Under the pieces are notes generated by a model. The model had not been told where the DNA came from. It did no database searches and saw only the letters and a program-made list of their open reading frames with translations. Shown in pieces: positions 5,138 to 55,819 of a stretch of 64,000 nucleotides of DNA (position 1 is the stretch's first letter; each line of letters starts with the position of its first letter). This DNA comes from Candidatus Komeilibacteria bacterium CG11_big_fil_rev_8_21_14_0_20_36_20 (GTDB lineage: Bacteria > Patescibacteriota > Patescibacteriia > UBA1558 > GWA2-36-10), in contig PCWQ01000007.1 of NCBI GenBank assembly GCA_002787405.1, positions 166,250-230,249 on the forward strand, in the 5' to 3' direction. A program made the translations under genes and the position numbers.

Positions 5138-6667
5138 CTACTTTTTATTTTCCACTATATCTTCCAATTCAACTAACTCGTTAATAATCTTTTTTAATTT
5201 TTTTTCGTCTTTAGCCACTAACTCGCCTGTTTTTTCAATATTATCTAAAAGATCTTTGGCTTCGCTGTCTAACTTGGTGAATAATTTATCTTCAAAGGCA
5301 GCTAAATTTTCTAAAGGCACCTGATCTAAATGTCCGTTAGAGACAGCATAAATAATAGCCACCTGCTTTGGCTGAGGCAAAGGATTAAATTGCCCTTGCT
5401 TTAATATTTCAGTTACTCGAGCACCTCGATTCAACTGTTGTCGAGTATTTTCATCAAGATCAGAACCAAATTGGGCAAAGGCCTCTAGCTCCCTGAACTG
5501 GGCTAAGTCCAGTTTTAATTTACCAGCCACTTTTTTCATGGCTTTAATCTGAGCAGCTGAACCAACTCGAGAAACTGATAGTCCGGCATTTAAAGCCGGG
5601 CGAATACCTTTATAGAATAAATCTGTTTCCAAAAAAATCTGTCCGTCAGTAATCGAAATAACATTGGTAGGGATATAAGCAGAAATGTCTCCGGCTTGAG
5701 TTTCAATAATCGGCAAGGCAGTTAAAGATCCGCCTCCCAACTTATCGCTCATTCTAGCGGCTCGTTCTAACAAACGGGAATGAAGATAAAAAACATCTCC
5801 GGGATAAGCTTCCCGACCTGGTGGTCGGCGTAACAATAATGAAATCTGACGATAAGCGACAGCGTGTTTTGATAAATCATCATAAATCAACAAAACATCT
5901 TGGCCTTTGTCCATAAAATATTCTCCCATGGCCACGCCGGCATAAGGAGCAATGTATGATAGAGAAGCAGAATCGGAAGCTCCGGCCAAAACAACTGTGG
6001 TGTAATCCATTGATCCGGTTTCTTCCAGTTTGGCTACTATCCTGGCTATTTTAGATTCTTTCTGGCCAATAGCGACATAGATACAGATAACATCTTTGCC
6101 CTTTTGATTAATAATAGTGTCAATGGCTAGAGCTGTTTTACCAGTCTGGCGATCACCAATAATCAATTCTCTTTGGCCTTTGCCAATAGGAATAATAGAA
6201 TCAATTACTTTAATACCAGTTTGCAAGGGCTCGTTAACTGACTGACGGGCAATTACTCCCGGAGCAATTTTTTCTACAGGATAAAATTCCTTGGCTTCTA
6301 TTTTGCCTTTACCGTCAATCGGCTCTCCCAAAGGATTAACTACACGACCAACTAATGATTGGCCAACTGGCACTGATAAAACTCTCTTAGTACGACGAAC
6401 TTTATCGCCTTCTTTTAATGAGCCATACTCACCTAAAATAATAGCGCCAATAGAAAATTCTTCCAGATTCAAAGCCACACCATAAATTTTTTCACCAGTT
6501 GATGTTTCAAACTCAAGCATCTCTGAAGACATAGCGTCTGATAAACCAGAAACTTGAGCAATGCCATCACCAATTTCAATTACTTCGCCAATAGTTTCTT
6601 CAGCCACGGTTGACTGATAACCTTCTAGTTGTTTTTGTAGACTCTTTACTAAATAATCGTAGGACAT
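5138..6667 (-). CDS. atpA: F1 ATP synthase alpha subunit
   Basis: 509 aa with Walker A GDRQTGKT. Operon position. Confidence 0.97.
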
Positions 6668-6671
6668 ATTT

Positions 6672-7076
6672 TTAAGTATTTAATTGCTTGGTTAAACTAT
6701 TTAATTGATTTTTTAAAGACAAATCAATTATTTTATCTTTATATCTAATGATTGCTCCACCAATTAATCGATCATCTTTGCCCTGCTTAATTTTGATTTG
6801 ACTAGCAGTTTTATTTTCTATTAATTCAGAAATCTCCTTAATTTCTTTCTGAGATAAATCATATTTTGATAATATTTCAGTAGCAACAATATTATGCCCC
6901 TCAAAATATAATTGTTCTAAATGATTTAAAATATTAGGCGCTAGATTTACTAAATGCTTTTGTTTTAAATAATTCAAAAAATTTTCAACAATCTCTTCGG
7001 CTTGTTTGGCTGGCTTATCTTTTATGGAAAGATAAACGCTTTGGGCTAATATTCTGGCTTGATTCTTCTTTTTCAT
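6672..7076 (-). CDS. atpH: F1 ATP synthase delta subunit (short form)
   Basis: 134-aa ORF between atpF and atpA. Delta-like C-terminal pattern ([19 protein letters not shown]). Confidence 0.75.
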
Positions 7077-7634: not shown

Positions 7635-7904
<270 letters not shown>

Positions 7905-53981: not shown

Positions 53982-54056
53982 TGGCTCCGGGGGAGGGATT
54001 CGAACCCACGACCAATTGATTAACAGTCAACTGCTCTACCACTGAGCTACCCCGGA
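53982..54056 (-). tRNA. tRNA-Asn (GTT)
   Basis: 75-nt manual cloverleaf. Acceptor TCCGGGG/CCCCGGA, D-arm GCTC/GAGC, anticodon arm GTTGA-CTGTTAA-TCAAT (U33, GTT, A37), T-loop TTCGAAT. CCA is encoded. Confidence 0.85.
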
Positions 54057-54310
54057 ATGTATTTAAAATTTTTTATCAGTTTTTCTTTTTGTATCTTGCT
54101 CCAACTTTTTACCTGCACTTCTCTTTGCATGGCTTTTTTTCTAGTATTAAAAATTTCAAAATAAATTATTTTAATGGGCCTTCTATATTTGGTATATTTT
54201 GCTCCTCGTCCAATATTATGTCGCTGCTCCCTTCTTTTTATATTATTAGTATATCCAGAATATAATGTATTATCATTACAACGTGCTAAATAAAAATAAT
54301 ATTTTTGCAT
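54047..54310 (-). CDS. GIY-YIG nuclease-domain protein (UPF0213-like)
   Basis: 87 aa with YYFYLARCNDNTLYSGYTNNIKRREQRHN ... GAKYT. Its 3' end overlaps the tRNA-Asn 5' end by 10 nt. Confidence 0.75.
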   Translation of the reverse strand: MQKYYFYLARCNDNTLYSGYTNNIKRREQRHNIGRGAKYTKYRRPIKIIYFEIFNTRKKAMQREVQVKSWSKIQKEKLIKNFKYIPG

Positions 54311-54504: not shown

Positions 54505-54596
54505 TCGTTGAAAAATATTTGCTTATTGATTTTTATTTTTCTTCTTTTCCATGCTATCTAACAAAGCGTCAACCGCCGAAGTATATTGCCGCGGTG

Positions 54597-55430
54597 TTAA
54601 ATACCAAGCATTATGCGTGTCAGCGATCTCTCCGGTTTTTTCACATCTCCTACGGAGAGAAAACCATCCACCATGTCTTTTTTGACCATGCGTTGCATTC
54701 TATCCATGGGGAAAGCTTTATCGCCAACGGGATGAATAATCACAATGCCTACTCCATGACGTTTCAATTCTTATAAATTATTCTGCAACTGCATTTCCGC
54801 TATCGCCTTCACTTCTTCCACCGATTTTTTTGGTCCTTGAGCCAATACTTTTAATGCTTCCTTGAATGCTGTATTTATTTTTGAGGTACGCTGAGGACTT
54901 TTCTGACGATCTTGATATTGCTGAAGCATATCCGAACTAAATCGTGCTGTTAAATTCCAAAACTTATCATCCCCAATCAAACCGGCCGGCGCAAAATAAA
55001 TGATATTTCTAAATTTTTCCGGATTCTGTAAAGCGGCGATAGTGGTGAACAAAGCACCTTCTGAATGAGTAACCACATCCGTCTGGTCTAAACCTTTTTC
55101 TGCTATCACTCTCGTCACTGCCATGACCTTTCTCAATTCTGCAAGGGGAAATTCTCCCGGATCTTTTGTCTCCAATCCATGAGGGGTGCTAATGGTAATG
55201 CTCCTGCGAGCACATTCTCCCGATATGATTAAAGCGTTCTCTTTATGAACTTCAGCAGTAGCAGACCAGCCGGGAATAATCATGACCGGCGTATCTGTTT
55301 TTTTATCCGGAGGATCAATATCAACCACTTCTACTTTGCCTTTAGGAAATTATGCAAATTCCAACATTTCGGGATGTTTAAACGGCTCCTCTAAAAATGA
55401 TTCTGAATATGGTAATTTTCTTTCAAACAT
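54597..55430 (-). pseudogene. alpha/beta-hydrolase gene interrupted by two in-frame TAA codons
   Basis: One continuous frame on the minus strand: MFERKLPYSESFLEEPFKHPEMLEFA-TAA-FPKGKVEVVDID ... HSEGA (nucleophile elbow) ... LQNNL-TAA-ELKRHGVGIVIIHPVGDKAFPMDR ... IMLGI. The track shows only the middle piece (54771..55328). Confidence 0.65.
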
Positions 55431-55454: not shown

Positions 55455-55573
55455 TGGTCGGGGTGATCCCGCATAGCGGGACAACCTCATGCACCCCATG
55501 CATATCTTTACCCGCCAAAGCAATAGCGACGGCGGACTATGCGTACGCGCTAGACCAACTGCGCCACACCCCG
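55455..55573 (-). other. aberrant 119-nt tRNA-like element with an oversized central region
   Basis: Canonical acceptor (CGGGGTG/CACCCCG + A + CCA) and D-arm (GCGC-AGTTGGTCTA-GCGC), but about 63 nt between the D-arm and a non-canonical T-like hairpin (GTCCC-GCTATGC-GGGAT). Internal hairpin ATGCA-TGGGG-TGCAT. No canonical anticodon arm was found. Confidence 0.45.
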
Positions 55574-55585
55574 CAAATTATCAAA

Positions 55586-55614
55586 AGTATAAAGGATAAT
55601 AGCTTAATTGGCAA
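55586..55614 (-). promoter_or_regulatory. sigma70-like promoter (TTGCCA-N17-TATACT) driving the tRNA-like element
   Basis: -35 at 55614-55609 and -10 at 55591-55586 on the minus strand, 12 nt upstream of the element's 5' end. Confidence 0.5.
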
Positions 55615-55687
55615 GATTTGGTAATATGGTGCCCTTCGATTCGCTACGCTCACTCAGGGCATTCGACTTCCTACTATATATAATCTA

Positions 55688-55742: not shown

Positions 55743-55819
55743 TGGTGGACTGTACAGGACTTGAACCTGCGACCTCTTCCATGCCATGGAAGCGCTCTAG
55801 CCAACTGAGCTAACAGCCC
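55743..55819 (-). tRNA. tRNA-Ala (GGC)
   Basis: 77 nt. Acceptor GGGCTGT/ACAGTCC with the G3-U70 Ala identity pair. Anticodon arm CTTCC-ATGGCAT-GGAAG (GGC). T-arm GCAGG-TTCAAGT-CCTGT. CCA is encoded. Confidence 0.9.

Follow-up and report, generated by a model that had tools for sequence, protein, structure and literature searches.

Several systems have been described in which a tRNA gene or a tRNA departs from the standard form. Patescibacteria possess tRNA introns that annotation tools miss; these interrupt the anticodon loop at 35/36 and are self-splicing ribozymes of group I (PMC13011429). Bacillus cereus has tRNA-Other, a pseudo-tRNA that lies beside a genomic island and acts within a larger regulatory RNA (PMC3399842). 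tRNAPyl and mitochondrial tRNAs have been reviewed as non-canonical tRNAs without the interaction between T-loop and D-loop (PMC7609411). Here these systems are compared with a tRNA-like element in a 64,000-nt stretch of DNA (the window) from Candidatus Komeilibacteria bacterium CG11_big_fil_rev_8_21_14_0_20_36_20. The element most likely is a dead or repurposed tRNA gene and not a new RNA class. The leading explanation is a pseudo-tRNA left by mobile-element recombination that is still transcribed.

The original prediction described a minus-strand element of 119 nt with a promoter of its own, a tRNA acceptor stem, discriminator, encoded CCA and D-arm, and all of these were found on reading the sequence (Table 1). 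The promoter agrees with the consensus at 10 of 12 positions and ends 12 nt before C1. The acceptor stem consists of 7 Watson-Crick pairs, the D-arm reads GCGC-AGUUGGUCUA-GCGC and includes G18 and G19, and 21 of the 21 cloverleaf pairs are standard. The interval of about 63 nt preceding the T-position hairpin was found to be 63 nt when counted from G26 on, made up of a 41-nt insertion, a 17-nt anticodon arm and a 5-nt variable loop (AGGUU). The supposed lack of a canonical anticodon proved incorrect. Element positions 70-86 form a perfect anticodon arm of 5 bp with a 7-nt loop, containing U33, the anticodon GGG (55497-55495) and G37. A standard class II tRNA fold does not fit the element; it was this anticodon arm, and hence the Pro(GGG) identity, that had been overlooked. 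The junction between D-arm and anticodon arm holds the 41-nt insertion instead of the single nucleotide 26. The insertion begins with TACGCAT (55545-55539), 7 nt that nearly repeat positions 27-33, TATGCAT (55504-55498), so that the insertion point may lie anywhere between 26/27 and 33/34. In 10 contigs (ENA, JGI and NCBI assemblies, from several samples) the 119 nt are present unchanged, and the sequence is therefore real and not an assembly artefact; the base-calling error that had been considered is likewise contradicted by these identical contigs. The population is clonal across this region.

Table 1 Features of the interrupted tRNA gene and its surroundings (window positions)
Feature	Position	Strand	Basis and details
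Whole interrupted tRNA-Pro(GGG) derivative, C1 to encoded CCA	55573..55455	minus	119 nt; read from sequence, orthology by synteny
Intact 5' part	55546..55573	minus	Acceptor 5' strand 55573-55567, U8 G9, D-arm 55564-55547, G26 55546
Insertion, 41 nt, UACGCAUAGUCCGCCGUCGCUAUUGCUUUGGCGGGUAAAGA	55505..55545	minus	Lone gap in MAFFT alignment
Extra hairpin within insertion, UCCGCCG...UGGCGGG	55511..55536	minus	Predicted folds
Anticodon arm UAUGC-AUGGGGU-GCAUG	55488..55504	minus	Sequence reading; covariance model aligns the arm as anticodon arm
T-position hairpin GUCCC-GCUAUGC-GGGAU	55466..55482	minus	Sequence reading, predicted folds
Acceptor 3' strand CACCCCG (pairs with CGGGGUG), discriminator A73, CCA	55455..55465	minus	Same as L212 sequence
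Alpha/beta-hydrolase pseudogene	54523..55430	minus	In-frame TAA 55352-55350 and 54770-54768; frameshift at A-run 54641-54636
Sigma-70-type promoter	55586..55614	minus	TTGCCA (55614-55609), 17 nt, TATACT (55591-55586)
tRNA-Ala(GGC), upstream neighbour anchoring synteny	55743..55819	minus	Same order in L092, L212

Related loci were obtained via orthologues (45-53% identical) of a neighbouring 552-aa GT39-like protein; the nearest sampled relatives of the window species are distant. A scan of genome contigs with generic rpoD patterns gave best matches of just 50-67% identity, without synteny. Two of the loci, L092 (GCA_018819405.1) and L212, match the window in their arrangement of dnaG, rpoD, a 152-aa gene, the GT39-like gene and clustered tRNA genes. 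Directly after tRNA-Ala(GGC), both have a normal tRNA-Pro(GGG) of 77 nt (8433-8509 in L092 and 7697-7773 in L212), before which the -35 (CTTG..AA) and the -10 (TATACTTT) are kept. Judged by synteny, the element is an orthologue of tRNA-Pro(GGG), because in the relatives the normal gene occupies this position, with tRNA-Ala(GGC) before it and with the same promoter. It carries two lineage-specific lesions, the insertion and a collapsed T-arm. An alignment with tRNA genes of relatives had been proposed as a check for an insertion of about 40 nt, and one was found: in a MAFFT alignment, the element and three normal tRNA-Pro(GGG) genes are colinear apart from one gap of 41 nt. Such colinearity speaks against a chance resemblance to tRNA, as does the agreement between independent assemblies against an assembly or base-calling artefact, and the probability of either explanation is negligible.

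The 5' part of the element is the same as that of tRNA-Pro(GGG) in L212 and L092 apart from one additional D-loop base, and the upstream repeat copy equals positions 27-33 of the L212 gene. The anticodon loop, AUGGGGU, has the same sequence in the normal tRNA-Pro(GGG) of the relatives. Outside the T-arm, element and L212 differ at 4 of 61 aligned positions; functional neighbouring tRNAs differ from their L212 counterparts at 0-14 positions, and the non-T part of the element is thus within their range. The pair 29-41 is U-A in the element versus C-G in both relatives. This U-A pair fits the downstream repeat copy only and looks like compensation after the insertion. The tRNA cluster of another relative, L214, contains Leu, fMet, Met and Asn only, without Ala(GGC) or Pro(GGG), and this absence suggests that tRNA-Pro(GGG) is dispensable. 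L214 (cluster at 6424-6804) has a GC content of 26% and almost never uses NNC codons. Codon usage was also considered as an indicator of tRNA loss and gave no signal: CCC and CCU make up 48% of the proline codons, as in relatives with a normal gene, without a sign of depletion.

Several other features of these tRNA clusters were observed. The spacer between tRNA-Ala and tRNA-Pro (window 55631-55660, minus) contains a hairpin, GCCCUGAGUGAGCGUAGCGAAUCGAAGGGC, that is kept in L212 as GUCCUGAGCGUAGCCGAAGGAC with one compensatory change of C-G to U-A. A second promoter-like site is present at 55702-55673, and the motif TCGACTC is repeated just past several tRNA 3' ends. An ORF for an 87-aa GIY-YIG nuclease (54047-54310, minus) ends 10 nt inside tRNA-Asn (53982-54056), an arrangement also seen in L092, where it is duplicated. 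In L092 (8985-9030) and L212 (7625-7675, minus), the GC-rich palindromes TCCGCCAGCTGGCGGA and CCTGCCTGCCGGCAGGCAGG break up 5' fragments of tRNA-Asn and tRNA-fMet that lie beside the intact genes; the L092 fragment sits between two tandem GIY-YIG genes. ORFs of ~950 aa that resemble major vault protein (Pfam Vault_3, MVP_shoulder) adjoin the GT39-like gene in two Patescibacteria relatives (L093, 6480-9323, and a JGI 3300072015 contig).

The second lesion concerns the T-arm. As the original prediction had stated, the loop in the T position is GCTATGC and not TTCRANY. The hairpin lacks T54, psi55, C56, A58 and the G53-C61 pair, with C53-G61 in place of the latter, and is predicted to fold into a 7-bp stem with a UAU loop. 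Compared with the L212 T-arm (GCCCG-TTCAAGT-CGGGT), 13 of 19 aligned positions agree and the core, CCCG/CGGG, is retained. The two arms are separated by about 6 events over 17 nt, the loop having shrunk and a U-A pair having been added at the base; the length of the arm is exactly 17 nt and its stem is perfect. The element was not called by ARAGORN, a check that had been suggested, in any mode, including the tmRNA mode, nor was it called after removal of the insert in silico. In a covariance model of tRNA-Pro (R1), built from the three normal Pro(GGG) genes, the orthologues scored 103-105 bits and other tRNAs 26-84 bits; the element was split into two local matches of 30.3 and 13.1 bits. Rfam gave no match of the element to RF00005, tmRNA or another tRNA-like family, a negative of little weight since the same scan also missed the normal tRNA-Pro(GGG) of L212. 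This apparently perfect gene (7697-7773, minus) was not reported at the gathering threshold or at E <= 10; it was found by ARAGORN and by model R1 (103.5 bits).

Folding predictions for the 119 nt gave the cloverleaf with a fifth hairpin (55536-55511) as the minimum free energy (MFE) structure, at -49.4 kcal/mol, which is not unusually stable relative to shuffled sequence (z = -1.08). Excision in silico of exactly element positions 29-69 yielded the cloverleaf as the predicted MFE fold. Long-range pairing between GCAUAG of the insert and CUAUGC of the T-loop, or between the two repeats, was rejected, as these structures reached -28.5 to -28.7 kcal/mol versus -41 to -49 kcal/mol for the cloverleaf. 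Among the explanations first proposed was a tRNA interrupted by an insertion or an intron-like element of ~40 nt. The anatomy agrees with this, with an insertion of exactly 41 nt; the intron-like character does not, as neither an Rfam intron match nor a bulge-helix-bulge motif was found. A group I intron was rejected, the insert being far too short at 41 nt and giving no Rfam match at E <= 10, and so was an archaeal-type intron, since inspection of the MFE and alternative folds revealed no bulge-helix-bulge motif.

These data bear on the possibility that the element still is a working, though unusual, tRNA-Pro(GGG), either with five arms and without the canonical elbow, or with the 41 nt removed by a pathway other than that of group I introns, in which case the product would be a tRNA of 78 nt whose anticodon stem is perfect. 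The identity set for prolyl-tRNA synthetase (ProRS), which we take to be C1-G72, A73, G35 and G36, is present in the element, and because these acceptor and anticodon identity elements are intact, ProRS could still charge the RNA. U33, G37 and CCA are also in place, the acceptor, D and anticodon stems are perfect, and the predicted cloverleaf after removal of positions 29-69, the apparently compensated 29-41 pair, the conserved promoter and the undiminished use of CCY codons are all in line with a functional gene. The tRNA introns of Patescibacteria that tools overlook would offer a precedent (PMC13011429). However, with T54, psi55, C56, A58 and G53-C61 gone while G18 and G19 are kept, the usual elbow would be impossible, and it is for tRNAPyl and mitochondrial tRNAs that a lack of the elbow interaction has been reviewed (PMC7609411). 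The size and the folds of the insert argue against the known types of intron, the insert is related to mobile-element DNA (see below), and no second example came to light in a metagenome collection. That a working tRNA is made from this gene is therefore considered very unlikely. A further proposal is that the RNA is made and used, as a five-armed tRNA-Pro derivative without a T-loop that ProRS could charge and that would act outside normal elongation or with adapted machinery, or after removal of the insert by a bacterial route that is neither of the group I nor of the endonuclease type; this is likewise unlikely.

The metagenome collection was scanned with a structural pattern consisting of a D-arm, 30-60 nt and then CAUGGGGUG. 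Among the 115 matches no other interrupted tRNA-Pro(GGG) was present. One of them, L200, has the same sequence as the window element. Another, in an unrelated organism (L184, minus, match offset 1605), is a 27-nt 5' fragment of tRNA-Pro(GGG), which a complete tRNA-Pro(GGG) follows after 27 nt; partial duplications of this type are typical of integration scars. The remaining matches were due to chance, in GC-rich DNA, or to adjacent tRNAs.

A sequence related to the insert was found in the same species. Contig L006, from another sample or strain, departs from the window directly after the CCA of tRNA-Asn (window 53982). There, at L006 10726-12230, the 3' end of tRNA-Asn is the exact integration site of an element that varies between strains, 1.5 kb from the interrupted tRNA-Pro locus. 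This element encodes a large serine recombinase of 472 aa (Pfam Resolvase, Recombinase and Zn_ribbon_recom) that is flanked by inverted repeats of ~90 nt, which are 95% identical and carry two perfect GC-rich hairpins. L006 breaks off within the right-hand repeat. The core of the insert, CGCCGTC[GCTATT]GCTTTGGCGGG-AAA, aligned to the inverted repeat at L006 10819-10839 with a score of 29, compared to 17.3 +/- 2.3 for shuffles (p ~3e-4). L006 reads ATGTTTGAAAGAAAC 38 nt beyond this insert-like match, and the first 14 nt of the hydrolase ORF downstream of the window element, ATGTTTGAAAGAAA, equal L006 10875-10888 (conditional p ~1e-4). When tRNA positions 27-76 are taken out of the window sequence in silico, the remainder aligns colinearly with L006 10819-10891. 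These alignments relate the insert, and also the DNA next to the hydrolase gene, to a mobile element that this species carries. The similarity does not extend to the T-position hairpin, for which an origin from the L006 element was not significant (p = 0.28).

Other sources of the insert were considered and rejected. An internal duplication of the T-arm region showed no significant similarity (p = 0.30-0.38). A multi-copy repeat or MITE does not apply, as the insert is single-copy and the hairpin word TCCGCC..GGCGGR does not define a family; no further copies were found, with a single occurrence in the window and in ~100 kb of the same species. A phage or plasmid origin was dismissed after three exact-pattern scans of viral contigs came up empty and the structural pattern gave one chance match. 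Among these viral contigs no relative of the L006 recombinase was detected either.

Downstream of the element lies the hydrolase gene, the pseudogene status of which was confirmed; the distance from the element to its ATG is 24 nt, where 25 nt had been given. Its conceptual protein is 72% identical over the full length to the intact 301-aa protein P0121, and with three disabling lesions the gene is, as read from the DNA, a true pseudogene. A role of the element as suppressor tRNA for the two TAA codons was rejected, since a UUA anticodon context is absent and the gene moreover has a frameshift. The closest intact orthologue (72% identical; L215, 1-98) starts 26 nt past tRNA-Arg(UCU). This suggests that the hydrolase gene is carried along by DNA which inserts at the 3' ends of tRNA genes.

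Another reading is that a tRNA-derived RNA or DNA site has been recruited to a new role, for example as a stable tRNA-like leader of the transcript downstream or a signal for its processing, as regulatory pseudo-tRNA, as decoy or as hybrid attachment site of a serine recombinase. tRNA-Other of B. cereus provides a precedent for such a role (PMC3399842). The promoter is strong, the stems are intact, and no terminator-like site was found in the 24-nt spacer between element and hydrolase ORF. The position of the L215 orthologue just past a tRNA gene is similar, and the insert has a part in common with the recombinase-flanking repeat. However, the gene that would be led is dead, the fold is no more stable than that of shuffled sequence, the element is confined to one species, and the window has no recombinase gene at this locus. 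A recruited role is accordingly regarded as unlikely.

The data are best explained by a pseudo-tRNA that originated from recombination. Of the explanations offered in the original prediction, a decayed tRNA that perhaps had been an integration target has thus received most support, from the relation of the insert to a serine-recombinase repeat and from the pseudogene downstream. Comparison with the relatives and with L006 shows, at the level of sequence, that the stretch from the conserved promoter through position 33 is the resident gene. Next come 34 nt that are related to the inverted repeat at the ends of a large-serine-recombinase element, and then a second copy of positions 27-33 with the remaining tRNA, the T-arm of which keeps a hairpin and not the universal T-loop. 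The chromosomal tRNA-Pro(GGG) gene would have been damaged by recombination with mobile-element DNA, possibly through illegitimate integration followed by deletion, or through import of a 3' tRNA fragment carried by the element. Transcription from the intact promoter presumably continues, and the RNA may fold into a five-armed cloverleaf. Lacking the elbow of T-loop and D-loop, and with a hairpin wedged at the hinge of D-arm and anticodon arm, it would not work as an elongator tRNA, and CCY codons would be read by another tRNA-Pro. The neighbouring hydrolase gene would have arrived with the mobile element and died afterwards.

The pseudo-tRNA reading is preferred because of the loss of the T-loop, the hairpin at the hinge, the insert of mobile-element origin, the dead neighbouring gene and the absence of tRNA-Pro(GGG) from the L214 cluster. 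Against a scar speak the lack of decay outside the two lesions, the 29-41 pair that fits the downstream repeat copy only, the intact promoter, the perfect stem of the T-position hairpin and the undepleted CCY codons. These points do not decide on function, since a recent event or an imported 3' part would fit equally well. As a scar, the element would be a clear case of damage by mobile elements to the tRNA genes of a reduced CPR genome; it would imply that tRNA-Pro(GGG) is expendable in such a genome and would be a warning that the tRNA inventories of such genomes may be miscounted. If instead the RNA is processed or charged, it would represent a bacterial tRNA architecture or an intron type so far undescribed.

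Among known systems, the element can be compared with the normal bacterial tRNA-Pro(GGG) of L092 and L212, with which it shares genomic position, promoter, the acceptor stem with C1-G72, A73, CCA, the D-arm, the AUGGGGU loop and a variable loop of 5 nt. It differs from these genes by the 41 nt inserted between D-arm and anticodon loop, by GCUAUGC in place of the T-loop UUCAAGU and by the inverted G53-C61 pair. As in tRNA-Other of B. cereus (PMC3399842) and in the L184 copy, a tRNA gene has been altered where foreign DNA joined the chromosome. Like the tRNA copies at integration scars, the element has part of the gene duplicated and mobile-element sequence adjoining it; unlike these copies, its halves are in one transcription unit, its full acceptor stem can pair, and no intact copy is present at the site. 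With the intron-bearing tRNAs of Patescibacteria it shares the phylum and an interrupted tRNA gene that standard tools overlook. However, those introns are of group I, while the insert of the element measures 41 nt, has no ribozyme fold and is located at 26/27-33/34. The T54-psi55-C56 motif is absent from the element as it is from tRNAPyl and mitochondrial tRNAs. These tRNAs also lack G18 and G19 of the D-loop, whereas the element has a canonical D-loop and has lost the T-loop alone, a combination that fits damage better than a co-adapted design.
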